Part shown: positions 12,257 through 61,094 of the stretch, in pieces | Layout: each line of letters starts with the position of its first letter | How positions within the stretch are numbered: the stretch's first letter is position 1 | Source of the DNA: Candidatus Woesearchaeota archaeon | GTDB lineage: Archaea; Nanobdellota; Nanobdellia; SCGC-AAA011-G17; GW2011-AR20 | Assembly (NCBI GenBank): GCA_018303025.1 | Contig: JAGVYZ010000018.1 | Location: 5,250-69,249 of the forward strand | Reading direction: 5' to 3' | DNA length: 64,000 nt | Program-made: the position numbers and the translations under genes | The notes under the pieces: generated by a model | What the model was told of the DNA's origin: nothing | The model's database searches: none | The model's input: the letters and a program-made list of their open reading frames with translations, nothing else

Positions 12257-12604
12257 ATGGCAAAAGAATATAGCCTTGGTGGTATATTATTTACAGTAGG
12301 CTTGATTTTAGCAGCTATAATCGCTGTATTTAGTTATGCAAATACACCAACATGGGCAATAATAACAATAGCATTGCTAGGTTTAATAGTAGGCTTGTTA
12401 AACGTAAAAGACAGTGAGATGCAGATGTTCTTGATAGCATCAATAACATTCTTAATAAGTTTCCAGGCATTGAGCAATGTATTTACTACATTAGCCTTAG
12501 GTTGGCAGGCAATAGCTAGCTTCTTTGACTTAATGAGTCTATTTGTAGCACCTGCAGCAGCTGTTGTAGCAGTAAAATCATTGTTTAAATTAGCAAGAGA
12601 CTAA
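12257..12604 (+). CDS. integral membrane protein, unknown function
   Basis: 115 aa, four hydrophobic segments; GGAGG 10 nt upstream of ATG. Confidence 0.5.
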   Translation: MAKEYSLGGILFTVGLILAAIIAVFSYANTPTWAIITIALLGLIVGLLNVKDSEMQMFLIASITFLISFQALSNVFTTLALGWQAIASFFDLMSLFVAPAAAVVAVKSLFKLARD

Positions 12605-12670
12605 ATCTCTTGTTTTTTTTCTTTTCTTTTTATACATAAACTTTAAATCCTAAACAAATTAAAATTTTGT

Positions 12671-13387
12671 ATGGCTTTTATAAGAAAAACAGTTTCAATA
12701 TTCATGATATTATTTGGTTTAATTGGAATAATAGCTTCATCAGCAGCATTTTATTATCTAGATAATTACCAATTCTCACCAACTCTAAAAGACCCAACCC
12801 AGTTAACAGATTCAATAGATGAAATATTTACAGCAACTTCTATTACAATGGAAGATGCAAGTTTGTCAGCTAAAAACGCAGGAACAAGCCTAAGAAGTGC
12901 AAAAGAAGGATTAAGTAATGCAGGAAAAACAACATTAACAATCCAGGATAGTCTAAAAACAACAACATCTTCATTAAGCTCAGCTTCTTCAATGCTAGCT
13001 GAAACCTCTTCTTTATTTAATTTATTAAATATTTCTTACACAAAACAAATTTCACAAAATTTTAATACAGTCTCAACAGAAATAGCTTCAACTTCCTCTT
13101 CATTAAACAAGGTTTCATCTCAATTTGGAACATTATCAGAAAATTTAGAAACAACAGCAGTAAACCTAGAAAGTAACGCAAAAGACATGGAAAAATTAGG
13201 ACAAGATTTAAGTCAGGTAAGTGTAAAACTAAACACATTATCATTCAAGTTTAATGCAATTACTAACCAGGATTATACACCATATTTAGTTAAAGCTCAA
13301 TTATTCGGAAAAATATTTTTAGTTTACTTAGCAATATTGCATTTAATGTTCTTCTTTACAGGAATTTTCTTATTTTCCAAGGATTAG
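12671..13387 (+). CDS. membrane protein with Ser/Thr-rich helical ectodomain
   Basis: N- and C-terminal TM helices flanking an S/T/N-rich repetitive region. Confidence 0.5.
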   Translation: MAFIRKTVSIFMILFGLIGIIASSAAFYYLDNYQFSPTLKDPTQLTDSIDEIFTATSITMEDASLSAKNAGTSLRSAKEGLSNAGKTTLTIQDSLKTTTSSLSSASSMLAETSSLFNLLNISYTKQISQNFNTVSTEIASTSSSLNKVSSQFGTLSENLETTAVNLESNAKDMEKLGQDLSQVSVKLNTLSFKFNAITNQDYTPYLVKAQLFGKIFLVYLAILHLMFFFTGIFLFSKD

Positions 13388-14496
13388 TCTAAAACCTTAA
13401 TAAAAGCAGCATTGCCATCAGAAATATAATGAACTCTTACTTGTTCTAATTTTGGTTCATATATACTCTTACGATTTTCTCCAAAAATATTTCTAAAATC
13501 TCCAACATATAAAACTAATGAATTAGCAGGTTTAAATAAAGCAGATCTTAAACAATGAAAACTAAAATCTTCATAAAATCTCCAATTCTGAGAATCTAAC
13601 ATTATTTGCAATCTTCTTTTTCTAAACATTATTTCAGAAAAAACAGTAGGAAGATGATGAGAACTAGCTTCCATAGAAGCATCTTCTTCAATCATTTTTG
13701 GTTTATCTCTAAAATTTCTAGTGTACTGCAGAGTTAATAATAATTCTTCTCCATCTTTTTTTGTTGCTCCTCTTACTAATCTACGTAGTCTAAAATGACC
13801 AGTTTCATAAGGATTATTCCCAAGTTTAAAATCAGGTGAAAAGAAATCAATTCCTCTGTGCACTTGAAGAGCAAAATGATCTCTCGTTCTATTTCTATTT
13901 TCTACACTCTGCACTTCAACAGAATAACAATGATCTTTATCTAAAAATCCTCTTATTTGTTCATATAACTCAATCAACTCTCTAGCTTCAGACATAGTTA
14001 AATTTCGCCCACGTTCAGTAAAGTTTTCAACATCATTATCAATTATTGAATAACAAGAAGGAGATAAAGTGAAAATATGATATTTGCCTTTGACAGCAGA
14101 GTCAGCAAAAATAGTTCTATTTGTTCCATGGATAAATTTCCAAGCAGAATGAGAAAAATCTCTAACAAATGTATCATAATCTAATCCTAATAATTGACAA
14201 TGTAGTTTAATTTTTTCTATAGCAACATTTCTATTTTTTAAAATTGCACTTGTAAAATCTTGATTTACACCATCCCCTAACAAATCATTCAATGTATTGT
14301 TTGGAAATAAATCAGAGCTTCCTTCATAATCTTGCCAATGCTCACTTCTTAATAAAATTGTCTCGTTTTCAACATCCTTTAATGCATCATCTATAGAATC
14401 ATAAACAGGTGCTACTCTAACTCCTTTTTCAGCTAAATATCTAATTATCTCTTTTTTAGGTTGCACTATTCTTCTTCCAACAAAAGTATCAGTCAT
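13384..14496 (-). CDS. hypothetical protein (orphan, 370 aa)
   Basis: Long ORF; R/D/H/W-rich composition unlike its neighbours; TATA-like ATTTTAAGG upstream; no family recognised. Confidence 0.5.
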   Translation of the reverse strand: MTDTFVGRRIVQPKKEIIRYLAEKGVRVAPVYDSIDDALKDVENETILLRSEHWQDYEGSSDLFPNNTLNDLLGDGVNQDFTSAILKNRNVAIEKIKLHCQLLGLDYDTFVRDFSHSAWKFIHGTNRTIFADSAVKGKYHIFTLSPSCYSIIDNDVENFTERGRNLTMSEARELIELYEQIRGFLDKDHCYSVEVQSVENRNRTRDHFALQVHRGIDFFSPDFKLGNNPYETGHFRLRRLVRGATKKDGEELLLTLQYTRNFRDKPKMIEEDASMEASSHHLPTVFSEIMFRKRRLQIMLDSQNWRFYEDFSFHCLRSALFKPANSLVLYVGDFRNIFGENRKSIYEPKLEQVRVHYISDGNAAFIKVLD

Positions 14497-14530
14497 AAAA
14501 ATAATAAAACAAAAAACCTTAAAATGTTAA

Positions 14531-14911
14531 CTAAATTCTTCCAAGAATTAGTTTAATCTTCTCAGGCAATAAGTTTATTTTAGAAACATTTTTTACAATC
14601 TCAAGGTTATATTTACCATTTTTCTTATCTTTAAATTCTTCTCCCTTCCCATCACCAAGAATACCTTCTAAAATAGAACATTCATAAAAAATCTCTTTCT
14701 CATTATAGCAATTATTTTCAATTTCAAAAATCTTTTTTCCAACTTTAACTTTCACCCCCAATTCTTCAAAACATTCTCTGACAAGTGCATCTTTAGGTTT
14801 TTCTTCTTTCTCAACATGCCCCCCAGGAGTACAATAATATTCATTCCCTTTCCAAAATCTATGAAATAACAAATAACCTTTCTTAGTTTTAATTACAGCA
14901 GAAACTCTCAT
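14531..14911 (-). CDS. NUDIX hydrolase
   Basis: Nudix box GGHVEKEEKPKDALVRECFEELG; 4-nt overlap with the upstream TrmB gene. Confidence 0.8.
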   Translation of the reverse strand: MRVSAVIKTKKGYLLFHRFWKGNEYYCTPGGHVEKEEKPKDALVRECFEELGVKVKVGKKIFEIENNCYNEKEIFYECSILEGILGDGKGEEFKDKKNGKYNLEIVKNVSKINLLPEKIKLILGRI

Positions 14912-15615
14912 TTAGCTATCTTCCATAAAAGTTCAAAGTATTTTTTATAACCTAAAGAAATCTCTTTATTTTTAATAACAATAGCAAATGGATTTTCCTT
15001 ACTCCATAAAATAATAGCAACCTTCTCCCCATAAATGTTTACAGCCAAAGGAGAAGAATATTTATTAGGTAAAAATCTTATCTCACTTAAAGGAATATTA
15101 ATCTTCTCAGTATTTTCATTAAAGATTATCTTAACATGAATTTTATTCTCTTTTCTTCTTTTATCAAACCATTTAAAGTAAAATTGTAATATCTCATAAG
15201 CAAGTGGAGAAGCACCTAATATCAAAATCTCTTTCTTAGTCTCAATCTGGTCTTCAAAAACAGTCTTTAATCCCTCTTTTCCTTTATAAAAATAAATTTC
15301 TTCCTCATTTTTTACACTATCATAATGTTTTAGCATTAAAGGTAATATTTCATTTAATTTCTCTTCTTTTTCCTTGACAATTTCTAAAAACCTGTTAGGA
15401 GAAGCAGCTCGAAATATCTTTTTATTATTCTTAACAATGAAAGAAACAAGTCCTTTTTCAATTAATCTCTCAATAGAATCATAAACAGTTCTTCTATGCA
15501 ATCCAGTTAATCTTGAGATTTCACCAGCAGCAGATTCCCCGTTTTTCAATAAAGAGCCATAAATTAAAGATTCATTATTAGTTAATCCCAGTTCTTTCAA
15601 AGTTTCCATATCCAT
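14908..15615 (-). CDS. TrmB family transcriptional regulator
   Basis: N-terminal wHTH LGLTNNESLIYGSLLKNGESAAGEISRLTGLHRRTVYDSIERLIEKGLV; paralog of 23923-24675. Confidence 0.8.
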   Translation of the reverse strand: MDMETLKELGLTNNESLIYGSLLKNGESAAGEISRLTGLHRRTVYDSIERLIEKGLVSFIVKNNKKIFRAASPNRFLEIVKEKEEKLNEILPLMLKHYDSVKNEEEIYFYKGKEGLKTVFEDQIETKKEILILGASPLAYEILQFYFKWFDKRRKENKIHVKIIFNENTEKINIPLSEIRFLPNKYSSPLAVNIYGEKVAIILWSKENPFAIVIKNKEISLGYKKYFELLWKIAK

Positions 15616-15648
15616 ATTAGACTAATAAAAAGCAGATATATAAATCTA

Positions 15649-15668
15649 GTGGTAATCTATATCACCAC
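15649..15668. promoter_or_regulatory. imperfect palindrome between divergent TATA boxes (candidate operator)
   Basis: GTGGTAATCTATATCACCAC (arms GTGGTAAT / ATCACCAC) between TTTATATAT (minus gene) and ATTTTAATATAAA (plus gene). Confidence 0.45.
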
Positions 15669-15703
15669 ATATTTTAATATAAACTTCTTCATTCTAATTT
15701 TAC

Positions 15704-16063
15704 ATGGTAAGAAGACAAATGATATGGGATAGAAGAAGTCACGCACCTAGTTTAGACTCTCCAGAAGTCCATACTTATACTTTCTTCATGGTTGGTAGTT
15801 TAGAAAGAATTGCAGCAACCTGTCAAAAAATTCTAGAGCAATTAGGTGCTTATGAAGAACCATCAGTAATAGCCAGAGGAAGTATTACAGGTTCTCAATC
15901 AGCATATATTGTTTACAAGTTTGATTCGCCCAAAGCAAATTTTGAAGGAACAGATATAGTTCGTTATAGCAGAAGAGATAGAGGATTAGGAGATATTTCT
16001 GATTTAGATGCATGGTGTGAAAGAAGAATATACGAAGGAGGAAAACAAAATGCAAGAAGTTGA
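15704..16063 (+). CDS. hypothetical protein (orphan)
   Basis: 119-aa ORF divergent from the TrmB gene; overlaps the next ORF. Confidence 0.45.
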   Translation: MVRRQMIWDRRSHAPSLDSPEVHTYTFFMVGSLERIAATCQKILEQLGAYEEPSVIARGSITGSQSAYIVYKFDSPKANFEGTDIVRYSRRDRGLGDISDLDAWCERRIYEGGKQNARS

Positions 16064-16541
16064 AACATATAAACGAACTGCTGGAGAAGGTACAATATCA
16101 ATGAGTGTATTTTTTGAAGATTTATTAGAGCGAGGAAGAATAAGTGTTTTTGATACAACCGGAATTAAACAAGATAGAATAACCGATTCTTTTCCATCAA
16201 CATATATTATTGTAGACAATCAAACAAAAAGAGCTTATTTATTAGGTTTCAGAAGTCATAGTGAAGAATTAAATGAAAGAAACAGTCAAACAGTTCACAA
16301 TGCAACCTTCATGCATAGGCTTCCAGCAGGGTTTAGAATAAGAGGAACAATATTTGCAGAAGATAGTTCAGGTTATCCTTATCTTCCAGGATTGCACCCA
16401 GATGCAAGATTATTAGTAACAAAAGATGATGATTATATCTCAATGGATGATACAGGAAGCATAAGCAGTTCAAGAAAAACAGAATTAATGGGTGAACGAG
16501 ATTCATTAATGGATAGAGTAATAGAATTTGTTACAACTTAA
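16050..16541 (+). CDS. hypothetical protein (orphan)
   Basis: ATG at 16050 preceded by GGAGG (16037-16041); the track ORF starting at 16008 is probably too long. Confidence 0.5.
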   Translation: MQEVETYKRTAGEGTISMSVFFEDLLERGRISVFDTTGIKQDRITDSFPSTYIIVDNQTKRAYLLGFRSHSEELNERNSQTVHNATFMHRLPAGFRIRGTIFAEDSSGYPYLPGLHPDARLLVTKDDDYISMDDTGSISSSRKTELMGERDSLMDRVIEFVTT

Positions 16542-18848: not shown

Positions 18849-18875
18849 CAGGTTCGTAAAGGGTGAAACCCTTAC
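18849..18875 (+). repeat. family A repeat copy
   Basis: caggttcgtaaagggtgaaacccttac; hairpin AAGGGT-GAA-ACCCTT. Confidence 0.75.
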
Positions 18876-19013
18876 ATGACAAACAAAAAAGTAATAATAT
18901 ACTCAATAATAGCCTTAATCTGCATTGTTTTAACCTTTACAATAAACTGGATTTTCATAGTTCCAGCTTTTATTTTAATGATTTTAAACCAAAAAGAAAT
19001 AATAAAGAAATAG
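18876..19013 (+). CDS. possible 45-aa membrane peptide
   Basis: MTNKKVIIYSIIALICIVLTFTINWIFIVPAFILMILNQKEIIKK*; below the ORF-track cutoff; starts right after a family A repeat. Confidence 0.3.
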   Translation: MTNKKVIIYSIIALICIVLTFTINWIFIVPAFILMILNQKEIIKK

Positions 19014-25947: not shown

Positions 25948-26118
25948 AGGTTTGAACCAGGTTCATGAAGGGCGTTTTTGTTTTTCTTTCCTGAAGTGTT
26001 AAACTCGTTTAACATTAGAAGAGCTTGACTCTTCTTTGGTTTCTTTCGTAAAGAAAGCTTCGCAGGGTCATAAGGGGTGCAAATTTTTAGGCAGGTTCAT
26101 GAAGGGTGCAACCCTTAT
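25937..26118 (+). repeat. cluster of family A repeats plus a family B-like module between convergent genes
   Basis: cagtttcatgaagg (25937), ccaggttcatgaagggcg (25957), gcagggtcataagggg (26062), gcaggttcatgaagggtgcaacccttat (26091-26118); tttctttcctgaag...hairpin between them. Confidence 0.75.
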
Positions 26119-27080
26119 CATTTTAGCATTTCAACAACTTCTTTTATTATTCTTACAGTCATTTCAGGATACCAAGTAGCTAAAAACTCGCAAACTTCAA
26201 TTTCCACAATTAATTTTTCCTGCATAGGAAACAATTTTCTTTTAGGTCCTAAAGCTAAACTCCCATCAAAAACTTCTTCTAATGTAATTCTAGGCAAAGG
26301 AGAGTTCTCAATAGCACTCCTGGCAGCATCTAAATAAGATACAGGTGCAAAATCCTTGTTCATTCTTTTGAACATAAAATCATTTGAATATTTTTTTATT
26401 ACTTTCATATCACTCAAATAAGAGTTTCTTAAATCCAAAGACATTTCATTTAAGTTAAACTTATTATATTTCCTTAAGGTATTTACAACCATTCTTTCTG
26501 TTTCAAGCATAACCATCTGCTTGTACATTTTATTAACTTCCTTGAAAAAATCATAATAAGCCCTATTCACATAATTTAAGATATTTTTTATCATTACCTT
26601 CTCAAGACCTTTGCCTTTGAAAGTAATAAAATCAATCACAGAAGGCATTCCTTTTATCCTGTTATATGCTCTATGGATTAAAAGGACTGTTTGCGCATTC
26701 TCGCATTCACTCCAGAAGTTTTGATATATTCTTAGTCTATGATAATAGTCATTTTCATCAAAAGCAACAAAAGCATATTTTCTCATATAATCCAATTTAA
26801 ACAAAGTATCTTCATTATCTAAAAATTTAGCATAAGATTCTAAAGCAACTTTCAATTCAGGAATATCTCGATTAAAATCAACACCATATAGCCTTCTTCT
26901 AGGCATGTTTCCTAAAACTAATTTACCTTTGTATTCATTTCTTAATAAGCTTCCAATAGTATCAGAATTATCATCTCTTCCATTAGAATTAATCAAGGAA
27001 GGTCCAGAATGAGGGCACATGATTAATGGCTCTTCATTATCCTTGTAAATAATAAAACCTCTTTTAAACTCACTTATCAT
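26118..27080 (-). CDS. hypothetical protein, possible N-formylglutamate amidohydrolase-fold enzyme
   Basis: CPHSGP ... DDNSD ... RRRLYGVDFNRD resembles the FGase family HxG / D / DxNR pattern; weak. Confidence 0.4.
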   Translation of the reverse strand: MISEFKRGFIIYKDNEEPLIMCPHSGPSLINSNGRDDNSDTIGSLLRNEYKGKLVLGNMPRRRLYGVDFNRDIPELKVALESYAKFLDNEDTLFKLDYMRKYAFVAFDENDYYHRLRIYQNFWSECENAQTVLLIHRAYNRIKGMPSVIDFITFKGKGLEKVMIKNILNYVNRAYYDFFKEVNKMYKQMVMLETERMVVNTLRKYNKFNLNEMSLDLRNSYLSDMKVIKKYSNDFMFKRMNKDFAPVSYLDAARSAIENSPLPRITLEEVFDGSLALGPKRKLFPMQEKLIVEIEVCEFLATWYPEMTVRIIKEVVEMLK

Positions 27081-27253: not shown

Positions 27254-27514
27254 ATGCTTGATAATGCACCTTCTTTAGCTTCAGGTGCGTTTGTATTATC
27301 CTTAGCATTAACAATAAAACTTAATTTCCTGCAATCATTAAGAATAGTTTTTGGCTCTTTTTACGTTTTATTCTTGCCAGGTCATTTCTTAACCTATGCT
27401 TTCTTTCCAAAGAAAGATATAGATTTTATAGAAAGACTAACATTAAGCTTTGCATTATCAATAGCAATAGTTCCTTTGTTAGTCTTCTACTTAAATTTAA
27501 TAGGAATGAAATAA
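27254..27514 (+). CDS. membrane protein fragment (DUF1616-like N-terminus)
   Basis: ...FLPGHFLTYAFFPKKDIDFIERLTLSFALSIAIVPLL...; ends at TAA inside a duplicated segment; a further TM helix continues out of frame. Confidence 0.4.
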   Translation: MLDNAPSLASGAFVLSLALTIKLNFLQSLRIVFGSFYVLFLPGHFLTYAFFPKKDIDFIERLTLSFALSIAIVPLLVFYLNLIGMK

Positions 27515-27585
27515 ACATATTAAACTCATTCTTAACCATCTTAGTATTAATTTTGTTAATTTTAGGATTTATAATTTACAAAAAG
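27503..27585 (+). repeat. about 85-bp direct repeat, left copy (flanks the Bro-N cassette)
   Basis: GGAATGAAATAAACATATTAAAC... ; near-identical first 24 nt and alignable remainder with 28535-28619. Confidence 0.8.
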
Positions 27586-27600
27586 AAATATATTCTTAAA

Positions 27601-27675
27601 AATATATATTAAAAGGCAAGGGTAAAGGACAAACACCTTTAGAAAGTTTATAAATAACAAATGATTACAATGTAG
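27601..27675 (+). promoter_or_regulatory. conserved upstream element U1 + TATA box
   Basis: AATATATATTAAAAGGCAAGGGTAAAGGACAAACACC then TTTATAAATA; AGGACAAA ends 43 nt before the ATG. Confidence 0.7.
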
Positions 27676-28503
27676 ATGGAAGAGAAAAATGCTTTGGTTG
27701 TCTTTCAAGACAAAAATATAAGAAGAATTTGGTTTCAAAATGAGTGGTATTTCTCTGTTGTGGACGTAGTTGGTGCTTTAATTGATAATGAAAGACCAAG
27801 AAAATATTGGTCTGATCTTAAAGTTAAACTTAAGGCAGAAGGATCTCAGTTGTCCGAAAAAATCGGACAACTGAAATTAATGTCTTCTGATGGAAAATAT
27901 TATGAAACAGATTGTGCAAATACTCAATCTTTGCTTAGATTAATTCAATCAATTTCATCACCAAAAGCAGAGCCTTTCAAATTATGGCTAGCAAAAGTTG
28001 GTTATGAAAGAGTTCAAGAAATAGAAAATCCAGAATTAGCTCAGGAAAGAATGAAATCATTATATGAGCAAAAGGGCTATTCAAAAGAATGGATTGAAAA
28101 GAGATTAAGAGGAATAGCAGTAAGACAGGAGCTAACAGATGAATGGAAACAAAGAAATGTTCAAGAAAAAGTTGAGTTTGCTATTTTAACAAATGAAATT
28201 TCTAAAGCAACTTTTGGAAAAACAGTTGAAGAATATAAGGATTTTAAAGGATTGAACAAACAAAATCTTAGAGATCATATGAATGATTTAGAACTAATTT
28301 TTACAATGTTAGGAGAAGCTTCTACTACAAAAATAGCCAGAAATAAAAATGCACAAGGTTTTAAAGAAAATAAAAAAGCAGCTAAAGAAGGTGGAGAAGT
28401 AGCAGGTAATGCAAGAAAAGAGCTTGAGGCTAAAAGTGAAGAAAAAATAAGTACTTCTAAAAATTATTTAATTGAACCTGAGAAAAGAAAAAAGTTGAAA
28501 TAA
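27676..28503 (+). CDS. Bro-N domain protein (DinD/antirepressor-like)
   Basis: LVVFQDKNIRRIWFQNEWYFSVVDVVGAL...RKYWSDLK... matches the Bro-N pattern; helical C-terminal half. Confidence 0.7.
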   Translation: MEEKNALVVFQDKNIRRIWFQNEWYFSVVDVVGALIDNERPRKYWSDLKVKLKAEGSQLSEKIGQLKLMSSDGKYYETDCANTQSLLRLIQSISSPKAEPFKLWLAKVGYERVQEIENPELAQERMKSLYEQKGYSKEWIEKRLRGIAVRQELTDEWKQRNVQEKVEFAILTNEISKATFGKTVEEYKDFKGLNKQNLRDHMNDLELIFTMLGEASTTKIARNKNAQGFKENKKAAKEGGEVAGNARKELEAKSEEKISTSKNYLIEPEKRKKLK

Positions 28504-28534
28504 ATAACTTTTATATTCAAATTAGAATATGATC

Positions 28535-28619
28535 GGAATGAAATAAACATATTAAACCCATTTTTAACAGTTTTGGCAATTATCTTATTAACTTTAGGTT
28601 TTATAATAATTAAAAAATC
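28535..28619 (+). repeat. about 85-bp direct repeat, right copy
   Basis: GGAATGAAATAAACATATTAAACCCATTTTTAACAG...; encodes a second copy of the TM helix NEINILNPFLTVLAIILLTLGFII. Confidence 0.8.
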
Positions 28620-31590: not shown

Positions 31591-31673
31591 CAGGTTCGTA
31601 AAGATGGATTTGGGTTCGTGAAGGGAGAATCCCTTACTCTTAGTGCAGGTTCTTCCTAAGAAAGTGCCCTTAC
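31591..31673 (+). repeat. family A repeat locus
   Basis: caggttcgtaaag; gggttcgtgaagggagaatcccttac (hairpin AAGGGA-GAA-TCCCTT, 31621-31635); agtgcaggttcttcctaagaaagtgcccttac containing the TAA stop of the gene ending at 31670. Confidence 0.75.
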
Positions 31674-34491: not shown

Positions 34492-34578
34492 CTGGTTTTA
34501 ATAAATAATACTTTTTTAAATATTTTGGTTTTAAAAAATAATGTATTATTCAAAAAACATAATTCTTGTTTTCCATTG

Positions 34579-35817
34579 TTAACTCTTATTTTTATACTTT
34601 AAAATAGCTCTTACTACAACACTTTCATGAACCTTAAAAATTTTTGCTACCTCTTTTTGAGTTAAATTGTGAGATTTATAAAAAGCAGCAATTTCCTTTC
34701 TTTTTTCATCATTAGTCTTTATTATTCTTTTTCCTAAATTATTTTCTTTTAGCACTCTTTGAACTTTAATCTGGCTTATTCCAACTTCTTTTGCAATATC
34801 CAATGTTCTAGTACTCCCAGAATTATATAACTCAATTATTTTCTTAATTTTCTCTTCTGAAATCTTATTCCAGACATTTTTCCCTTTCTCTTTAAAATAG
34901 CAAGTTTCTTCTTTAATTTTAGGATATTGTTGCATCATATAAAAAAATTTAGCATATTTTTTAGGACTTAAAGCCATCAATCTCTGATTTAATAATTTGA
35001 TTAGGTTTTCTCTTTGAGAAATTATCAATAAATCATCACAATATTGTTTACTTGGAATATTTAAAAAATTTAAATATTTTTGAAATAAATTTCTTTCTTC
35101 CTGTTTAGCAGCAGTTATATAAATTCTATATCTTTTATATTGCTTATTGTTTTCAACACAACCTTCGCCAGCTATTATCCCTTTCATAAAGCTTTTAACA
35201 CTTTCATTCCCATAGTTGATTAAAGAATAAAACATTAATTTTACATAATTTTTAATAATCTGACTAAATAAATTACATTTATATTCAATAATTAAAGACC
35301 CATAATAATTATCTTTTAATTTTATATGGGGAATATTTTTTATATAAGAAACAGTTTTAGGATGTCTCATTTCATAAGAAATTTTAGTTTGTCTTAACCA
35401 GTGATTAATTACTTTTTCTTCTACTTCTTTTTTATACTTTTCATCTAAAGGTTCTTGCATATTTAATTTTATATACCACCTCCATCTATCTGAAGAAAAC
35501 TCAAAATTTTTTGAAAACCACAAGATTACTTTATTCATTAGTTTAAATTCAGAATTAGCAAATACTAAACATCCGTTCTGAGTTTTCCCCATTTCAGCTT
35601 GTAATAATCCTAAAGCTTCAAATAGTTCATTATTAAGTATGATTTTTCTAGGTAAACTTAAAGAATGTTCACGTTGTGCTTCATTATATTGACTTACCAA
35701 ATAAGATAAGTCAAGATATTCTTCCCCTATATGTTTGTTAAGAATAACTTCATTATTATTTTTCCCAACTAAAATCTTTTCAGGAATAAATTCATTTAAA
35801 TCAAGATAATTATTCAT
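34579..35817 (-). CDS. LAGLIDADG-like (two-motif) protein with C-terminal tandem HTH domains
   Basis: EALGLLQAEMGKT and FMKGIIAGEGCV resemble the two LAGLIDADG motifs; C-terminal LDIAKEVGISQIKVQRVL and TQKEVAKIFKVHESVV HTHs. Confidence 0.55.
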   Translation of the reverse strand: MNNYLDLNEFIPEKILVGKNNNEVILNKHIGEEYLDLSYLVSQYNEAQREHSLSLPRKIILNNELFEALGLLQAEMGKTQNGCLVFANSEFKLMNKVILWFSKNFEFSSDRWRWYIKLNMQEPLDEKYKKEVEEKVINHWLRQTKISYEMRHPKTVSYIKNIPHIKLKDNYYGSLIIEYKCNLFSQIIKNYVKLMFYSLINYGNESVKSFMKGIIAGEGCVENNKQYKRYRIYITAAKQEERNLFQKYLNFLNIPSKQYCDDLLIISQRENLIKLLNQRLMALSPKKYAKFFYMMQQYPKIKEETCYFKEKGKNVWNKISEEKIKKIIELYNSGSTRTLDIAKEVGISQIKVQRVLKENNLGKRIIKTNDEKRKEIAAFYKSHNLTQKEVAKIFKVHESVVVRAILKYKNKS

Positions 35818-35892
35818 AGAAAAAATAAGTAAAAATAATATATAAATGCGGCGCGCGCATTTGTCCTGTAAACCTACCTTTTAATATATATT
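35818..35892 (-). promoter_or_regulatory. conserved upstream element U3 + TATA box
   Basis: Sense strand AATATATATTAAAAGGTAGGTTTACAGGACAAATGCGCGCGCCGCATTTATATATT...; AGGACAAA ends 43 nt before the ATG; contains the GC island 35848-35858. Confidence 0.7.
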
Positions 35893-35918
35893 TTAAAAAA
35901 TATATTAATGTTACCACT

Positions 35919-37785: not shown

Positions 37786-37941
37786 ACCTTTAGCTTTTTT
37801 CCAAAATGCTTTTTCTTTAGCGTAGGTTTCTAAATGCTTCTTTTTTGGTGTAGCTTTTTTCTAATGCTTCTTTTTTAGTGTAGCTTTTTTCTAATGTTTC
37901 TTTTTTAGTGCAGGTTTTTTCTTTTCAAAGAAAAAAAGTGC
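37786..37941 (+). repeat. tandem array of about 30-bp units next to the tRNA-Leu 3' end
   Basis: Units at 37818, 37847, 37877 (AGTGTAGCTTTTTTCTAATGCTTCTTTTTT), a degenerate unit near 37786, and a last unit at 37907 that is a family A AGTGCAGGTT-hairpin-GTGC module. Confidence 0.75.
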
Positions 37942-38094
37942 TGCGGGAAACAGGGCTTTCGGAAGTTCTTTTCTTTTCAAGGAGTTCTTTTCCCTGAAGG
38001 CTTTTCTTACAAGAAAAGGCTTCGTTCGAACCTGCGTAGGCACTAAGCCACTAGGTCCTAAGCCTAGCCCGTTTGACCACTCCGGCATTCCCGC
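37942..38094 (-). tRNA. tRNA-Leu(UAG) with 69-nt T-loop intron
   Basis: Acceptor GCGGGAA/TTCCCGC+A, anticodon arm CTAGG-CTTAGGA-CCTAG, long variable arm, T stem GCAGG/CCTGT. Confidence 0.85.
37955..38023 (-). other. tRNA-Leu(UAG) intron at position 59/60 (or 60/61)
   Basis: GAAGCCTTTTCTTGTAAGAAAAGCCTTCAGGGAAAAGAACTCCTTGAAAAGAAAAGAACTTCCGAAAGC between TTCGAAC and CCTGT. Confidence 0.8.
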
Positions 38095-38140
38095 AATAAA
38101 ATTAAAAGAAATATAGGAGTATAAAAAGATAACTAATATA

Positions 38141-40443: not shown

Positions 40444-40530
40444 TTTTATCTTGATTAATTTATAAAATACGGTTTTTAAACCTTTGCTTCAAAAAAATAA
40501 AGGCATTTTTGGGATTAATATATAGTCTAA

Positions 40531-40605
40531 AATATATATTAAAAGGTAGGGTTACAGGACAAACACCCTCGTGGAGTATTTAAATAGAATTTACTTCTTC
40601 TATCT
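40531..40605 (+). promoter_or_regulatory. conserved upstream element U2 + TATA box
   Basis: AATATATATTAAAAGGTAGGGTTACAGGACAAACACC then TATTTAAATA; AGGACAAA ends 43 nt before the ATG. Confidence 0.7.
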
Positions 40606-41769
40606 ATGTTAAAAAATGAAGATTTAAGAAACCTAAATGAAGAAGAATTTAAGCAAGTTTATGAATATTTAAGGATAAAAACAGAGAACTTTAAGACTAT
40701 TACTCCTTCTTTAATCTTAGAAAATAACCAATATTTGTTAATATTTAGAATATGCTTGGGTTTATCTCAAAAAGAATTCGCTAAAAAATTAGGAAAAACA
40801 AAAGATTGGTGCAGACATACAGAAGCCAAAAGAAATAAAATAGAAAAAGTCAAAATAGCAGAAAGATATACTAAAAAAATAACAGAATTAATCAATAAAA
40901 AAGAGGTTAAATTAGAAAATTCTTTAATAAATTGGGAAAAATATAATTCTTTTTCTAAAGACCAAATATTACCGGAAGCTGAAATAAAATTAAAATCTTT
41001 TTCTAAATTAACAGAAGAAAACTTAAAAGATTATTTTGATTTAATCAAAAGAGAAACTAATAATTTTACTGAGATTAGCTCTGAATTATTTATAAAAATA
41101 CCACAAAGTATTCTTATTTTTAGAATTATATTAGGACTATCTTACAGAAAATTCAATCAAGTGTCTAATATAAGTGAGAAACAAATAAGAAATTATGAAC
41201 ACTTAACTAATAATATTAAACCGACCCTAGCCAAAAAAATTTCGAATATTGTTACAAGCTTATTGATAAATAAGAATATAGAATTTCAACAGTTTTTAGA
41301 GAATTATAGAATTTTAAAAGGATTTTATGGATGCAGAGATTTAAATTTCTTAGTTAATCAAGGATTGAATAGACTAGCAATGATAAAACCAACAAAATAT
41401 GAAGAAGAAATAGCTAAACTCTTAGAAAACCAAAATATAAAATTTGAAAGATATAAAATATTGAACGGAGTAAAAAGTAGGTTTAACATTGATTTTTATG
41501 TTCCTGATAAAAATATAGCAATAGAAGTTTTTTCTTATAATAATTGCAAAAAAAGAGGTAATATAAAATCAAAAGCTTGCTTAGTTGATCATAGATTTCA
41601 ATCATTAAAATCAAAAGATTCTAAACTAAGAACGATCATGTGCATAAGAATAGAAGGTAAACCAATTTTGCATAATTATGTAAAAAATTATATAGATATG
41701 GAACTTCTTAATACAGATTATTTGTTAATAAATAAAGAAGTAAATAATTTATTATATTTAATTAAATAA
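40606..41769 (+). CDS. protein with two XRE-type HTH modules and a C-terminal endonuclease-like (DUF559/Vsr-like) region
   Basis: Repeated IFRICLGLSQKEFAKKLG / IFRIILGLSYRKFNQVSN; C-terminal ...RFNIDFYVPDKNIAIEVF...; the nuclease assignment is tentative. Confidence 0.45.
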   Translation: MLKNEDLRNLNEEEFKQVYEYLRIKTENFKTITPSLILENNQYLLIFRICLGLSQKEFAKKLGKTKDWCRHTEAKRNKIEKVKIAERYTKKITELINKKEVKLENSLINWEKYNSFSKDQILPEAEIKLKSFSKLTEENLKDYFDLIKRETNNFTEISSELFIKIPQSILIFRIILGLSYRKFNQVSNISEKQIRNYEHLTNNIKPTLAKKISNIVTSLLINKNIEFQQFLENYRILKGFYGCRDLNFLVNQGLNRLAMIKPTKYEEEIAKLLENQNIKFERYKILNGVKSRFNIDFYVPDKNIAIEVFSYNNCKKRGNIKSKACLVDHRFQSLKSKDSKLRTIMCIRIEGKPILHNYVKNYIDMELLNTDYLLINKEVNNLLYLIK

Positions 41770-41788: not shown

Positions 41789-42202
41789 TTATACACGACG
41801 ACCACGTCTAAAATGTTTTTTGCGACACCCATCATGAGGGAGAGGTGTAACATCTTCTATGTTTCCAATTCTAAAACCTTCTCTTGATAATGTTCTAACA
41901 GCAGCTTGTGCACCAGGTCCTGGATTATTAGGTCCATTGTGTCCACCAGGTGCTTTTATTCTAATATGTAAAGCATTAATACCATGTTCTCTTGCTAAGT
42001 CAGCTGCTTTTTTAGAAGCCATCATAGCAGCAGTTGGACTGCTTTCAAGTCTATGAATTTTAACAACCATACCACCAGAAGTTCTTGCTATTGTCTCACT
42101 CCCAGTAATATCAGTAATATGAATAATTGTATTGTTATAACTAGAATAAATATTAGCTATTCCCCATCTTAATTCAGGTCTTTTTATAGGAGTTTCATTC
42201 AT
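41789..42202 (-). CDS. rps11: 30S ribosomal protein S11 (uS11)
   Basis: [19 protein letters not shown]...; C-terminal ...[11 protein letters not shown]. Confidence 0.92.
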
Positions 42203-42247
42203 TTTTTATTTTCCCTTGAGGCTTTTTTAAAAAGGCTCATTTCATTC
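42203..42247 (-). repeat. family B hairpin element filling the S4-S11 intercistronic spacer
   Basis: Sense strand ATGAGCCTTTTTAAAAAAGCCTCAAGGGAAAATAAAAAATG; hairpin core 42218-42238. Confidence 0.8.
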
Positions 42248-42968
42248 ATTTTTTAGCCTCTTCTTTTTTTGCAGGTTTCTCTTTTTTTGTTTTTTCTTCC
42301 TGAAGGTTCTTTTTTAAAGAAGCTTCTTTATCTTCTTTTTTTTCAAAAGTTTTCTTAGGTTTTTCTTCCTTATGGGATTCTTCTTTTTTCTCTTCCTTAT
42401 TTATTTTCCCTGAATTTTTTCTTTCTCCCTGAAGGCTCTTTCCTAAAGAGGCTTCAACTTTAGGTCTTTCAGGATGATCTTCTTTATTAAAAGCAGATTT
42501 AGGGTTATAATTAATTTTCCCTCTTTCACTTTGCATGACTAAATAAGAAGGAACAGTAACTTTCTGTCCATTTACACTAATATGTCCATGAACAATTAAT
42601 TGTCTTGCCTGATTTGCTGTTTTAGCTAAACCAGCCTTGTAAACAATTGATTGCAATCTTAAGTTCATAATATCGTTTAAAGTTAAACCTAATATAGTAT
42701 CTAAATCAGATTTTTCAGTTAATAATCCTAATTTAACTAATCTATCAACAAGTTGTTTTTTCTCTTTTTCACCTTGTTCACTATCATCATATAATAAGAC
42801 TTTAGCTTGTCCTCTTATTTTGCTTAAGAGAGAATTCATTTTCCAGATTTCATTTTTTCTCTTCAAGCCAAATTCAATAGCTAATGCTTTATCATGTTCA
42901 ATCCTTGCTCTTTGCCAAGGATGATTAGGAGTTTCATACTTTTTTCTGAATTTTCTTGCTAATCCCAT
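42246..42968 (-). CDS. rps4: 30S ribosomal protein S4 (uS4) with long Lys/Glu-rich C-terminal extension
   Basis: MGLARKFRKKYETPNHPWQ..., S4 domain LQSIVYKAGLAKTANQARQLIVHGHISVNG; about 70 extra C-terminal residues containing two hairpin repeats. Confidence 0.9.
   Translation of the reverse strand: MGLARKFRKKYETPNHPWQRARIEHDKALAIEFGLKRKNEIWKMNSLLSKIRGQAKVLLYDDSEQGEKEKKQLVDRLVKLGLLTEKSDLDTILGLTLNDIMNLRLQSIVYKAGLAKTANQARQLIVHGHISVNGQKVTVPSYLVMQSERGKINYNPKSAFNKEDHPERPKVEASLGKSLQGERKNSGKINKEEKKEESHKEEKPKKTFEKKEDKEASLKKNLQEEKTKKEKPAKKEEAKK
42302..42326 (-). repeat. family B mismatch hairpin copy inside the S4 tail
   Basis: Sense GAAGCTTCTTTAAAAAAGAACCTTC, translated EASLKKNLQ. Confidence 0.8.
42431..42455 (-). 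repeat. family B mismatch hairpin copy inside the S4 tail
   Basis: Sense GAAGCCTCTTTAGGAAAGAGCCTTC, translated EASLGKSLQ. Confidence 0.8.
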
Positions 42969-42971
42969 TTT

Positions 42972-43015
42972 GTTTTTTATTTTCCCTTGAGGCTTTTTTA
43001 AAAAGGCTCATTTTA
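42972..43015 (-). repeat. family B hairpin element filling the S13-S4 intercistronic spacer
   Basis: Sense AATGAGCCTTTTTAAAAAAGCCTCAAGGGAAAATAAAAAACAAAATG; core 42989-43009, identical to 42218-42238. Confidence 0.8.
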
Positions 43016-43519
43016 TTATTTTTTCCCCTTTCCACCTTTATCGCTGGTTGGTGCTGGTTTTGCAGCTTTTCCAGGTACAGCTTTTTTCTTTTGTACACCA
43101 ATAGACCTTCCTTTTCTGAAGTGACTCTTTGTTTTTTGTCCTCTCACTGGCTGGTCAATTGCATGTCTTAATCCTCTTCTTGACCTTACTTTTTGTAATC
43201 TTTTAATATCAAAATCTCTTGTTAATCTTACTTCAGAAGATAATACATGTAAATTTTTTCCTGTTTCAATGTCATTTCTTCTGTTTAACATCCAAGTTGG
43301 AATTTTTTCAGAAGGATTAGCTAATAATTCTTCTAATGCTTTTATTTTTTCAGGGCTTAATTCTCCTAATTTTCCATGTGGATCTAAATGCAAAACATTG
43401 CATATTGCATTAGAGAACATAAAACTAATTCCTTTGATTTTTGTCAAGCCATGAAAAACCTTTAATCTACCGTCTAAATCAGTATTTCTTATCCTTACAA
43501 TTGCTCTCATTTCACTCAT
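43016..43519 (-). CDS. rps13: 30S ribosomal protein S13 (uS13)
   Basis: MRAIVRIRNTDLDGRLKV...; the track ORF starts at a TTG, so ATG 43519 is preferred; basic C-terminal tail. Confidence 0.9.
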   Translation of the reverse strand: MSEMRAIVRIRNTDLDGRLKVFHGLTKIKGISFMFSNAICNVLHLDPHGKLGELSPEKIKALEELLANPSEKIPTWMLNRRNDIETGKNLHVLSSEVRLTRDFDIKRLQKVRSRRGLRHAIDQPVRGQKTKSHFRKGRSIGVQKKKAVPGKAAKPAPTSDKGGKGKK

Positions 43520-46156: not shown

Positions 46157-46492
46157 TTAACTAACCTTCATCTCTTTTAAGTATTTATCAACTAACTCAT
46201 CAACAAGTAAAAGATTTATATTTTCATAACCCTTGTTTATTCTTAATTTTAGCTCAGAATTAACTTTGTTTATGATTTTTCTTTTAATTTCTTCAATATC
46301 CGTTTCAGGCAAACTCCTGTTTACAGGATTTATCTTTTCCCTGTATTTTTTTGCAATTTCACTGCTATTCCTGATTTCTTTATTATAGGCTTGGGAGATC
46401 TCTTCTTTATCTATTGCCTTTTCAAGAACTTCATGAATAACTGCATTTGCAAGATTTGAGATAAATGCCTCAGTAAGTTTGTTTCTGTTCAT
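46157..46492 (-). CDS. hypothetical helical protein
   Basis: 111 aa; the start codon follows a family B spacer element. Confidence 0.4.
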   Translation of the reverse strand: MNRNKLTEAFISNLANAVIHEVLEKAIDKEEISQAYNKEIRNSSEIAKKYREKINPVNRSLPETDIEEIKRKIINKVNSELKLRINKGYENINLLLVDELVDKYLKEMKVS

Positions 46493-46540
46493 TTTTCTTT
46501 TTCCCTTGAGGCTTTTTCTTAAAAAGGCTCATTCTGTTCA
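46493..46540 (-). repeat. family B hairpin element spanning a stop codon and spacer
   Basis: Sense AATGAGCCTTTTTAAGAAAAAGCCTCAAGGGAAAAAGAAAAATG; its first part encodes ...NEPF* of the upstream gene; core 46508-46530. Confidence 0.8.
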
Positions 46541-47325
46541 TTTATTTTCTCCAAAATAGTCTTAAAGGTTTTATTATAAACTTCCTTATATTTCTTTAAA
46601 AAATCATTTTTAACCATATTTTCCTTTAATTCATTTATATTAATCTTACATAATTCTTCAATTTTTTTATTAACTATTTCTCTATTTAGTTTTTTCCCAG
46701 AAATAAATAAAAGAATAGCTACCATATTAAAAGTCAGATAATATTTTTCTTTCCCATTCAAAAGCTCAAAACCATCAATTAAAGATTTGCTTTTTAATAA
46801 ATTCAAATCAAGAAGCTTATAATTAATGTTTCTTTTAATCCTAAATATAATCCTTTCTTTAGAAACACATTTGCTTAGCATTAAACTATATAATGGGTCT
46901 ATTGATAAACCCGAAAGCAGTTCATTTTTACTAATTACAATAATATGGGTTTTTATTCCAGTTAAACTTTCTATCTTATTTTTAATTAAGCTTACATCAA
47001 TTTTTTTATCATCAATAATCAATATATCCAAGTCATTAAAACTAAATCCTTTTTCAAGAAAAGAGCCAGTAATAATTATATTCTCAGGATTAATCTCTTT
47101 ATTAACCAAATTAAAAACTTCTTCAATTATTCTTGTTTTTATTGGTTCAAGATTTTTTACATTGTAAAAATAAGGCTTAATTCTTTTTCCATCTTCCTTC
47201 TCAGAATTTAATCTTTCCAAAGGCATTATTGTAACATACTGCCCAATAGAAAAACCAGCCCTGTTTTTTGGAATGTAAACCTGGTCCATTCTGCTCCCTT
47301 TGCTTATTCTGCTTATAATTTCCAT
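46519..47325 (-). CDS. nucleotidyltransferase-domain protein with N-terminal AbrB/SpoVT-like segment
   Basis: MDQVYIPKNRAGFSIGQYVTIMPL (AbrB-like, tentative); minimal NTase motif ITGSFLEKGFSFNDLDILIIDD. Confidence 0.55.
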   Translation of the reverse strand: MEIISRISKGSRMDQVYIPKNRAGFSIGQYVTIMPLERLNSEKEDGKRIKPYFYNVKNLEPIKTRIIEEVFNLVNKEINPENIIITGSFLEKGFSFNDLDILIIDDKKIDVSLIKNKIESLTGIKTHIIVISKNELLSGLSIDPLYSLMLSKCVSKERIIFRIKRNINYKLLDLNLLKSKSLIDGFELLNGKEKYYLTFNMVAILLFISGKKLNREIVNKKIEELCKININELKENMVKNDFLKKYKEVYNKTFKTILEKINEQNEPF

Positions 47326-57335: not shown

Positions 57336-57421
57336 CCAGGTTCGTAAAGGGTGCGCAGGTTCATTTTCTTAGCGCAGGTTCTTTCTAAGAAAGTGCGGTT
57401 CGTGAAGGGAGAATCCCTTAC
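57336..57421 (+). repeat. family A repeat locus (three copies)
   Basis: ccaggttcgtaaagggtgcgcaggttcatttt; agcgcaggttctttctaagaaagtgcggttcgtgaagggagaatcccttac; the CCCTTAC end holds the TAA stop of uppS. Confidence 0.75.
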
Positions 57422-58128
57422 TTGCCAAATCTTCTTTCCCTATCACTATAGTCAATTAAAGCAGCTTTAAAATCTTCTTTAGAAAATTCAGGCCATAAAT
57501 GATCAACCCAGTAAATTTCAGCATAGCTTCCCTGCCATAATAAAAATCCAGAAAGTCTTTTCTCTCCCCCAGTTCTTATTATCAAATCAGGCTCACTCTC
57601 AAGATAAATGTTTTTCTTGAAAACTTCTTCATTAATATCATTAACATCTAAGCTTCCATTTTTAACAGCTTCTGCAATTTTTTTAGTAGCATCAATAATC
57701 TCAGTTCTTCCACCATAAGCCATTGCGAAATTAATTATAAAATTAGTATTATTTTTAGTCTTCTCAATAATTAAATGTATTTTTTCCTGTATATCTTTTG
57801 CAAACATCCATGTTCTTCCAATGATATTTATTCTAATTCCTTCCTTCATTAATCTTTCATCATCTCTTAATTTGTCAAATTCTTTTCTGAATATATCCAT
57901 TAAAAAGTTAAATTCTTCTTTTGGTCTGTTAAAATTTTCAACAGAAAAAGCATACAAAGTTAATTCTTTAACCTTAAATTCCTTGCACCAATTAAGGACA
58001 TTTTCTATTTTATTTGCCCCCCATTCATGCCCTTTCCAGGGTTTAAGGGTTAATCTTCTAGCAAATCTCCTATTTCCGTCCATTATTATGCCAATATGTT
58101 TTGGAATTTTGTTTTCAGTTGGATTCAT
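57418..58128 (-). CDS. uppS: undecaprenyl/di-trans,poly-cis-prenyl diphosphate synthase (cis-prenyltransferase)
   Basis: HIGIIMDGNRRFA, ...IRTGGEKRLSGFLLWQ..., ERRFG. Confidence 0.9.
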   Translation of the reverse strand: MNPTENKIPKHIGIIMDGNRRFARRLTLKPWKGHEWGANKIENVLNWCKEFKVKELTLYAFSVENFNRPKEEFNFLMDIFRKEFDKLRDDERLMKEGIRINIIGRTWMFAKDIQEKIHLIIEKTKNNTNFIINFAMAYGGRTEIIDATKKIAEAVKNGSLDVNDINEEVFKKNIYLESEPDLIIRTGGEKRLSGFLLWQGSYAEIYWVDHLWPEFSKEDFKAALIDYSDRERRFGK

Positions 58129-60759: not shown

Positions 60760-60835
60760 AGTGTAGGTTTTCCCTTTACAGGTTCGTGAAGGGTGGAACC
60801 CTTACGCGGGTTCATAAAGGGTGCCAAACCCTTAT
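60760..60835 (+). repeat. family A repeat locus abutting tRNA-Leu(CAA)
   Basis: agtgtaggttttccctttacaggttcgtgaagggtggaacccttacgcgggttcataaagggtgccaaacccttat, followed directly by GCGGGAA of the tRNA. Confidence 0.75.
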
Positions 60836-60963
60836 GCGGGAATGCCGGAGTGGTCAAACGGGGTAGACTCAAAATCTACTGGCTTAGTGCCTACGCAGGT
60901 TCGAACGAAGCCTTTTCTTGTAAGAAAAGCCTTCAGGGAAAAGAACTCCTTGAAAAGAAAAGA
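60836..60963 (+). tRNA. tRNA-Leu(CAA) 5' exon (60836-60906) plus intron start; 3' exon not found in the window
   Basis: 71-nt exon identical to tRNA-Leu(UAG) except for a fully compensated anticodon arm (GTAGA-CTCAAAA-TCTAC); the next 57 nt are identical to the Leu(UAG) intron, then diverge; no CCTGYTTCCCGCA downstream. Confidence 0.6.
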
Positions 60964-61094
60964 TTTTCTGGACCTAAGAAAACAAAAGTTTTCTTTGGAA
61001 AAAGAAGCATTGAATTCAACTTAATTCAGGTTTAGCAATAATTATAAATTCAAAAAATATTAAATTAAAGAAGGTGAAAAAAAGGGTAAATTCT

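Follow-up and report, generated by a model that had tools for sequence, protein, structure and literature searches.

Genomic setting and architecture of the upstream module

The window, by which we mean the whole 64-kb stretch analysed here (contig JAGVYZ010000018.1 of assembly GCA_018303025.1), is chromosomal DNA of a Woesearchaeota (DPANN) archaeon in which a conserved upstream element, hereafter the module, precedes three genes. These encode a DinD-like Bro-N protein, a 412-amino-acid (aa) protein with LAGLIDADG-like motifs and a 387-aa protein with two helix-turn-helix (HTH) domains. The G+C content is 25–31% in the window and 28% in the source genome, and the proteins encoded include archaeal RNA polymerase subunits D and N, the ribosomal proteins S13, S4, S11, L18e, L13 and S9, an aspartate kinase and RsmB. 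A phage origin of the window was ruled out, since a megablast search of a phage collection with 18 kb of it returned 0 matches. Proteins identical to those encoded here carry the NCBI name 'Candidatus Woesearchaeota archaeon'. The window's contigs recur in many aquifer (Rifle-type groundwater) metagenomes. A pattern scan of the GTDB representative genomes gave only 11 chance hits, all in bacteria; at least as far as these loci go, that set thus lacks the source species. To our knowledge, almost nothing has been learnt about transcriptional regulation in DPANN, and we know of no genetically tractable member of these archaea.

The window was searched with a degenerate 33-nt pattern, AATATATATTAAAAGG-N6-TA-N-AGGACAAA, allowing at most two mismatches. 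Three matches were obtained, at 27601 (plus strand), 40531 (plus strand) and 35892 (minus strand), versus 0.00 in 100 dinucleotide-preserving shuffles, and the three sequences reported in an earlier note on this DNA are exact at these coordinates. In each copy the block starts 75 nt before the ATG (27676, 40606 and 35817), the end of AGGACAAA lies 43 nt before it and a second TATA-like box starts at −29; the 75-nt and 43-nt distances and the identical offset of the box, likewise given in the note, are exact for all three. The note had delimited an element of 33–37 bp, which is present as quoted, but the true conserved block is longer, about 52 nt. It extends some 14–22 nt beyond the upstream end given in the note, opening with an additional TATATT box about 22 nt before ATTAAAAGG, and closes with ACC. 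The module thus reads, in order, TATATT box, AAAATATATATTAAAA, the 23-mer GGTAGGGTTACAGGACAAACACC, 6–7 variable G+C-rich nt and the proximal AAGTTTATAAATA; the sequence between the blocks, described as not conserved, is indeed partly variable, but over these 6–7 nt alone. The AAAATATATATTAAAA AT box encloses a 10-bp palindrome, AATATATATT, and the 23-mer is asymmetric. With the proximal box, the module measures about 71–73 nt and ends 20 nt before the ATG (about 95 nt counted to the start codon). The best 50-nt windows between the three copies are 84%, 82% and 92% identical, and the genes behind them are unrelated, as had been proposed: pairwise BLASTP of the three proteins gave nothing better than E 0.4, and their Pfam families differ.

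Copy 3 (40514–40586, plus strand; nhmmer 68.3 bits, E 2.9e-19) comprises AT box A TAATATATA, the palindromic AT box AAAATATATATTAAAA, the 23-nt GGTAGGGTTACAGGACAAACACC, the variable CTCGTGGAG in the region of the TFB recognition element (BRE) and a proximal TATA box, TATTTAAATA, at 40577–40586. Copy 1 lies at 27586–27656 on the plus strand (53.5 bits, E 1.2e-14), with its proximal TATA box TTTATAAATA at 27647–27656, and copy 2 at 35837–35908 on the minus strand (58.9 bits, E 2.4e-16), with its proximal TATA box TTTATATATT at 35846–35837, beginning 11 nt past the stop codon of the S9 gene.

Among the 66 ATG-start open reading frames (ORFs) of the window, TATA-like hexamer starts cluster at −30 to −27, with a mode at −29, and a Shine-Dalgarno (SD) sequence is absent from most first-in-operon genes. 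Because a TATA box starts about 29 nt before the ATG and no SD is present, the first-in-operon genes of this genome appear to be leaderless, and their geometry matches that of the archaeal leaderless 'group D' genomes of GeneMarkS-2 (PMC6028130). In each of the three window copies, the module's proximal box begins at −29, within the 26–30 nt before the start codon that characterize a leaderless core promoter and at the genome-wide position; therefore, it looks like an ordinary working core promoter. The constant 75 nt would then follow from a fixed distal-to-proximal distance added to the leaderless TATA-to-ATG distance.

Further copies and the genes behind them

A scan of metagenome contigs recovered 48 loci, about 28 of them with the full module and nearly all of these from one aquifer sample series. 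Including the window, they amount to 13 distinct module loci, represented by 16 sequence variants across which the upstream region is nearly invariant and the adjoining 6–7 nt vary. In a profile search of about 0.7 Mb with a hidden Markov model, the scores were bimodal, true copies reaching at least 51 bits and the next best match 20.6 bits, and the absence of a graded series of weak sites disfavours a generic promoter. No module was found before any of the roughly 63 other window genes, ribosomal-protein and other housekeeping genes included. The element is therefore specific as regards the window, with three copies in 64 kb and none before a housekeeping gene, but one external copy drives an operon of radA, itself a housekeeping gene of recombination.

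An ATG follows the proximal TATA start by 29–30 nt in nine of the 11 sites with readable downstream sequence. At four external sites, the main gene is SD-led and starts 81–216 nt from ATTAAAAGG, so it is the internal architecture of the module that is invariant, not its distance to the gene, and the invariant spacing is that from the upstream block to the proximal TATA box only. The exactly conserved ATG spacing that had been noted is thus true of the three window copies, where it reflects the genome-wide leaderless geometry, but fails at these four sites.

The search for more copies yielded ten sites beyond the window, with mostly mobile-element-type DNA-binding and nuclease genes downstream. 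Four proteins behind modules are LAGLIDADG-like (LAGLIDADG_3), namely the 412-aa protein of the window and proteins of 447 aa (locus L034), 407 aa (L039) and 313 aa (L044/52/79). Next to the Bro-N and 387-aa proteins behind window copies 1 and 3, the remaining genes encode a KilA-N protein (L070), an ORF6N protein (L060), an NYN nuclease preceded by a 37-codon leaderless ORF (L059), a DUF1016 (PD-(D/E)xK) fragment (L063) and small proteins of 50–61 aa adjoining nrdR (L050/55/75). At L057/64/78/38, a 95-aa gene is followed by an intein-containing radA, and its stop codon overlaps the radA start, placing both in one operon. The stretch between module and ATG (AAAAGATGCTTAGA) is also common to three loci with unrelated genes (L059, L070 and L044).

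Several of these sites display additional features. At L056 (3500–4180), an IS200/IS605-type element, with a Y1 transposase and subterminal hairpins at both ends, disrupts the module copy just after the proximal TATA box, directly following TTTATAAA. The radA of L057 (5563–7740) bears its intein with a LAGLIDADG-type insert (725 aa). Near the L059 module, a 1651-aa SMC-like gene (3981–8936) may also bear an intein, and four hairpin repeats of the form CCATTTTnCnGATGTCAGnAAAATGG lie about 60–260 nt past the stop of the NYN gene. In L034 (7960–8040), the frame of the 447-aa LAGLIDADG ORF continues directly into the aIF2-gamma N-terminus (..NIGLVGH), which a 29-nt insert (TATTGAACGTAAGTTCAAAAGCCAAAGAC) separates from VDHGKTT..; excising the insert restores the frame, and its predicted RNA fold has a central hairpin with exon-exon pairing on either side (z = −2.8). 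Either a mini-intron within a coding gene or an error of assembly may explain this insert.

Element classes rejected

A structured RNA element was rejected, as Rfam, at both gathering and E-value thresholds, gave only noise for the module, and RNAalifold on 14 copies predicted 0 pairs and no conserved hairpin. The alternative stems AAAGGT/ACCTTT or AGGGT/ACCCT, present in some copies and missing from those of the CGCGCG type, were dismissed. Judged from its sequence, the module is a DNA-level element. A miniature inverted-repeat transposable element, or an insertion-sequence derivative with an outward promoter (Correia or ERIC type), was also rejected: neither terminal inverted repeats, nor an inverted copy of any module part downstream, nor short target-site duplications were found, and the sole flanking repeats are the diverged 91-nt and 26-nt host-gene copies described below. 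Similarly, a solitary CRISPR-repeat-like unit was rejected, since the module copies never occur in arrays and no Rfam CRISPR-DR match rises above noise. Three pattern scans of IMG/VR found no module copy; an 18-mer gave three hits, all in unrelated contigs (36–65% GC) and due to chance.

Possible insertion footprints at two window sites

The Bro-N gene (27676–28503, plus strand; 275 aa, Pfam Bro-N E 9e-11) has a leaderless-type start, and the C-terminal half of its product resembles DinD (NCBIfam PRK11525, E 1.8e-6, below cut-off). This protein has more than 8000 homologues, the top 120 being at least 68% identical and spread across Woese-, Nano- and Micrarchaeota. A 91-nt direct repeat flanks the locus. 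Its left copy (27494–27584, plus strand) is the 3' end of a DUF1616 fragment gene and ends 2 nt before the module, and its right copy (28526–28616, plus strand) begins 22 nt past the Bro-N stop, so that the repeats, 78% identical (79% over 92 nt by blastn, E 7e-14), bracket a 941-nt unit made of the module and the Bro-N gene. As a general signature, flanking direct repeats were found at this site only among the sites checked. The DUF1616 gene itself (27254–27584) is an 86-codon N-terminal fragment whose stop lies inside GGAATGAAATAAAC, the next frame continuing as a transmembrane helix; this 23-nt frame-switch sequence is identical in the duplicate after the Bro-N gene (28526–28616).

At the second site, the 412-aa protein (34579–35817, minus strand) has a pair of LAGLIDADG-like motifs, both of which carry E at the acidic position, and its C-terminal HTH repeats resemble Cbp1. 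Its Pfam matches (LAGLIDADG_3, E 0.003; HTH_7; HTH_23) are all below gathering, and that to NCBIfam HTH_Cbp1 (E 1.7e-7) is below cut-off. The gene is absent from the relatives L023, L080, L081 and L085. Two nucleotides past its stop codon lies an orphan 26-nt copy of the 5' end of a rhomboid gene (ATGGAAAACAAGAATTATGTTTTTTG, 34551–34576, minus strand), and the intact rhomboid gene begins 1.4 kb beyond, at 33165. The junction between S9 and rhomboid, which occurs in three different states among the window and its relatives, holds the module, the 412-aa gene and aspartate kinase in the window, nothing in L023 and L085, and ndk in L080, L081 and L084. L023 is 99.9% identical to the window up to 35919, 11 nt from the module, and then switches to an 88% relative, at either a recombination or an assembly breakpoint. 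Outside the window, L038 and L057 have the module and the 95-aa gene in common and unrelated upstream flanks. At two sites in the window and one outside it, a homology or indel boundary thus coincides with the module's 5' edge, and these footprints fit a recombination process that would move promoter-plus-gene units via flanking host homology. A conserved 3' cassette end was rejected, as the 3' flanks compared share nothing, whether a second module copy, a terminator hairpin or a conserved motif; no direct or inverted partial copy occurs within 3.5–4 kb downstream, leaving one copy per locus.

The double-HTH gene and its ancestral module

The third window gene (40606–41769, plus strand) encodes a 387-aa protein with two XRE-type HTH domains (Pfam HTH_3) and a C-terminal restriction-endonuclease-like domain. 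Its family comprises about 40 homologue clusters, found in DPANN only, and the gene is located between S11 and rpoD, on the opposite strand, in all seven DPANN lineages retrieved. A PDB sequence search with this protein found nothing. Its AlphaFold2 (AF2) model is confident (pLDDT 89.6) but gave weak Foldseek matches, because it has several domains: C.BclI, C.Kpn2I and SinR for the HTH part, and AF1548 and Ecl18kI for the C-terminus, nuclease-like hits having E>0.05. D296, E307, D328, H329 and K335 are invariant in the family. These data lend weak support to a nuclease-like assignment. Therefore, among the labels that the earlier note gave to the three downstream genes, the Bro-N domain and the HTH domains of the 387-aa protein have Pfam support, but the LAGLIDADG and HTH matches of the 412-aa protein are below gathering and the nuclease-like character of the 387-aa protein is weakly supported.

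Upstream of the L085 orthologue (66% identical), a module copy scores 29 bits, with about 76% of the distal block identical and a 29-nt spacing to a GTG start. Diverged modules also precede other orthologues, of 68% (16 bits), 53% (20.6 bits) and 51% (9 bits) protein identity, making four orthologous diverged copies (L085, L091, L093 and L088). The most deeply conserved part, kept in all four, is AAAATATATATT; among the weaker copies, three retain GGACAA(A/C), and L093 retains ACCCTCGTGGAG and the −29 TATA box. The 29-nt spacing from TATA box to start is retained in L085 and L093. Because the gene is syntenic in seven lineages and diverged modules occupy orthologous positions, the copy at 40531 is not a recent insertion. 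The note had considered all three genes to be insertions into a conserved gene order, which agrees with the footprints at the first two sites but not with this syntenic gene. On this comparative evidence, the module at the 387-aa gene is old, under constraint and vertically inherited, hence ancestral there, and this copy is likely the source of the others, with the gene as the module's ancestral owner.

A proposed propagated control region and its alternatives

The conservation of the module is block-like, with more than 30 invariant columns beside a variable stretch of 6–7 nt, and orthologous sites have identical modules next to coding DNA of about 87–90% identity. This block pattern, an identity beyond that of the coding DNA and survival at deep orthologues argue for selection. 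We lean towards regarding the module as a leaderless core promoter to which a lineage-specific upstream control region is joined; it would have begun at a regulator-like gene and spread to accessory genes. As for the two options raised in the earlier note, a regulator-binding site or the end of a mobile cassette, the evidence speaks for a shared and propagated cis-regulatory module that takes something from each.

Under this reading, the region of about 50 nt at a fixed distance from the archaeal BRE/TATA core promoter would be bound by a dedicated transcription regulator, which from this position directly before BRE/TATA would either activate transcription or occlude TBP/TFB. One site type precedes the double-HTH gene (the ancestral copy), the radA operon and the DinD-like gene, and the most economical candidate regulator would be the syntenic 387-aa double-XRE-HTH protein itself, which in that case would control its own gene. 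From this gene, the module may have spread to the other loci of the aquifer lineage through promoter propagation or capture. Since transcripts would be leaderless, fusion of the module 29–30 nt before any ATG would suffice to express a newly arrived gene, and the outcome would be a co-regulated set that joins recombination (radA, DinD-like) with selfish endonuclease-type genes.

Several observations weigh against this interpretation. Paralogous copies in the aquifer lineage are 82–100% identical over about 50 nt, versus about 76% for the L085 orthologue, which points to recent copying or gene conversion, as a transcription factor site alone needs no such likeness; selection and recent copying or conversion both seem to operate. 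In L095, another Woesearchaeote (36% GC), the DinD-like gene is SD-led and lacks the module, so the regulon is not conserved as a set and the association is lineage-specific. In the more distant L089, L090 and L094, the HTH gene is present and the module is not recognizable. The identity of the regulator and the sign of regulation are guesses. Moreover, the distal AT box resembles a BRE/TATA pair with a putative start near ACAAAC, which brings in the tandem promoters weighed below.

The conserved sequence may instead be chiefly the 5' end of small mobile gene cassettes. Units of promoter and gene would pass from locus to locus and among related genomes through homologous recombination between module copies, or through homology-facilitated illegitimate recombination with flanking host genes, in the manner of the promoter-early stem-loop (PeSL) elements of T4-type phages, with promoter activity secondary. 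We hold this to be possible though rather unlikely, and it overlaps the propagated control region without excluding it. It would account for the 91-nt repeat that ends at 27584 next to a module starting at 27586, the breakpoint of L023 at 35919, 11 nt from the module, the shared module and 95-aa gene of L038 and L057 behind unrelated upstream flanks, the diverged partial duplications of a neighbouring host gene beside two cassettes (the 91-nt repeat at 78% identity and the 26-nt piece of rhomboid), the sequence that L059, L070 and L044 share up to the ATG before unrelated genes, and the greater likeness of paralogues than of orthologues; the cargo is typical of selfish genes and the sites are variable hot spots. 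Nevertheless, the 3' ends lack a second copy, terminator hairpin or conserved motif, terminal inverted repeats are missing, the module never occurs in arrays or IMG/VR viral contigs, the HTH gene has an ancient copy passed on by vertical descent, and the alternation of invariant and variable blocks argues for functional selection. Tandem promoters, an improbable alternative in our view, would make the distal AT box (AAAA-TATATATT) a BRE/TATA pair with a second start about 24 nt downstream, giving an mRNA with a 41–43-nt leader beside the leaderless one; the 23-mer would then be promoter-proximal and initiator sequence, or a repressor operator of the upstream promoter. The distance from TATATATT to ACAAACACC (23–25 nt) is the usual archaeal TATA-to-start distance, the deep conservation of AAAATATATATT in the four orthologues agrees with it, and in L088 and L091 the two TATA boxes keep their distance from each other even though the 23-mer is displaced by 2 nt. 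However, the proximal box is already at the genome-wide leaderless position, the leader from the distal start would have no SD in most copies, and AT-rich boxes are common at 28% GC.

It is very unlikely that the 20–23-mer is the recognition site of some other protein, either a homing-endonuclease target or an Orc1/Cdc6 site resembling an origin recognition box (ORB). Its length and asymmetry fit LAGLIDADG targets, four of the 13 downstream genes are LAGLIDADG-like, and there is a loose resemblance to the I-SceI site (TAGGGATAACAGGGTAAT); yet insertion would split a homing target, and the 23-mer is intact beside every gene, non-endonuclease genes included. The ORB comparison rests on a partial match of TTACAGGACAAAC to the mini-ORB sequence TTCCAGTGGAAC quoted in PMC1904270, where the cores TTCC and GAA are described as perfectly conserved. 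ORB and mini-ORB were rejected, as the element has TTAC instead of TTCC and no GAA, so that the two cores are not both present, and its 13 single, dispersed sites, with no clustering, inverted pairs or adjacent cdc6, are unlike origins. Finally, a strong housekeeping promoter of generic type, or an AT-rich likeness arisen by chance, would explain the proximal half, since AAGTTTATAAATA at −29 is the genome's generic promoter form, but the distal 50 nt occur at three of about 66 window genes, none of them housekeeping, and 0 matches are expected by chance; shuffles, the bimodal profile and the survey of window genes refute this explanation, to which we give hardly any credence.

If the propagated control region is indeed regulatory, it could be extended to an SOS-like circuit for recombination and DNA damage in this lineage of DPANN. 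An autoregulating double-XRE-HTH protein with a nuclease fold, encoded in the S13-S4-S11-rpoD cluster, would control radA, the DinD-like RecA/RadA modulator and nucleases through the module of about 50 nt, and free-standing LAGLIDADG and other selfish genes would have captured the module, being expressed exactly when the cell is recombination-proficient. We rate this extension as improbable. The link of a recombinase operon with homing-endonuclease-like and antirepressor-like genes, if it is regulatory, would bear on the timing of selfish genes and on the question of an SOS-like response in archaea. The module also offers a concrete in vitro handle, in that a single defined stretch of DNA comes with an obvious candidate for its regulator and a delimited set of targets, and suggests how a leaderless genome could activate arrivals, a fixed promoter block 29–30 nt before any ATG being enough.

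Other repeats and accessory islands

A second upstream element of about 50 nt, ATGAGCCTTTTTAAAAAGGCTCAAGGGAAAATAAAAA-ATG, occurs at 42202–42253, 42973–43024 and 46494–46545, before minus-strand genes of the ribosomal-protein cluster, where it directly precedes S11, S4 and the ORF at 46157–46492. With its perfect hairpin, GAGCCTTTTT/AAAAAGGCTC, it could serve as an internal signal for processing, termination or re-initiation. Another intergenic repeat, of 26 nt (GGTTCGTGAAGGGnGnAnCCCTTAC) and with a GAAGGG/CCCTTC-like hairpin, is present in five copies (18851–18876, 26094–26119, 31613–31638, 57397–57422 and 60781–60806), two of which are identical. Furthermore, a 134-nt inverted repeat (37962–38095 and 60835–60968), 93% complementary and 22.7 kb apart, includes a sub-threshold tRNA-like hit at 38035–38094 (23 bits versus a gathering threshold of 29) and adjoins a 30-nt tandem repeat in three units (37833–37922); the strain L017 parts from the window sequence at 37955, shortly ahead of the inverted repeat.

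In L095, the other Woesearchaeote, an island of about 13 kb (3100–16150) splits the conserved L10-L1 / L11-NusG-SecE cluster. On it are genes for a DNA methyltransferase and a PLD-family nuclease, along with the DinD-like Bro-N gene, PIN/RHH pairs and DUF3800. In these genomes, accessory genes seem to land preferentially in ribosomal-protein clusters.

Comparison with known systems

In the bacterial SOS regulon, the LexA box precedes recA, dinD, lexA and genes of prophages and mobile elements. The module resembles it in being one operator-like sequence before the radA operon, the DinD-like gene, nucleases, mobile-element genes and, hypothetically, the regulator's own gene, and in having an AT box with a 10-bp palindrome. 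In contrast, no LexA homologue is involved, and the candidate regulator combines a double XRE-HTH with a nuclease-like domain. The conserved DNA, of about 50 nt, is mostly asymmetric, and the gene set is not conserved in other Woesearchaeota.

A conserved element of about 20 nt directly upstream of BRE/TATA, at a fixed distance, also recalls archaeal upstream activating sequences (UASs), to which the Ptr2 sites of Methanocaldococcus belong. The UAS of GvpE in haloarchaea is likewise an activator site immediately upstream of the BRE (PMC2241852). However, these UASs are limited to one or a few operons of one pathway, consist of short bipartite motifs and are not propagated as near-identical blocks of about 50 nt.

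The promoter-early stem-loop (PeSL) cassettes of T4-type phages place a promoter cassette before accessory ORFs (PMC2839356, PMC4122927). The module shares with them a conserved promoter-containing cassette before unrelated, mostly accessory ORFs in plastic regions, with homology boundaries at the cassette that suggest shuffling by recombination. It differs in lying in a cellular archaeal chromosome rather than a phage, in having no stem-loop terminator (0 pairs in 14 copies) and in not flanking the ORF on both sides, and no evidence was found for mini-circles with the module.

Putative mobile promoters (PMPs) are similar upstream sequences before non-homologous genes of one genome, at least 80% identical over at least 50 nt (Matus-Garcia, Nijveen and van Passel, 2012; PMC3575422). 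The window copies reach 84%, 82% and 92% in windows that start at −92 to −89 and run to about −40, beyond the −150 to −50 interval of those authors, and their coding sequences are non-paralogous by BLASTP and Pfam; on these sequence comparisons, the module satisfies the operational definition of a PMP. Nevertheless, the module is archaeal and leaderless and abuts the start codon, lying mostly at −97 to −20 instead of −150 to −50, and it is found at 13 sites, whereas PMPs are mostly pairs. Its cargo is strongly biased to DNA-binding and nuclease genes and, in contrast to PMPs, it has an ancestral 'home' copy at a conserved regulator-like gene.

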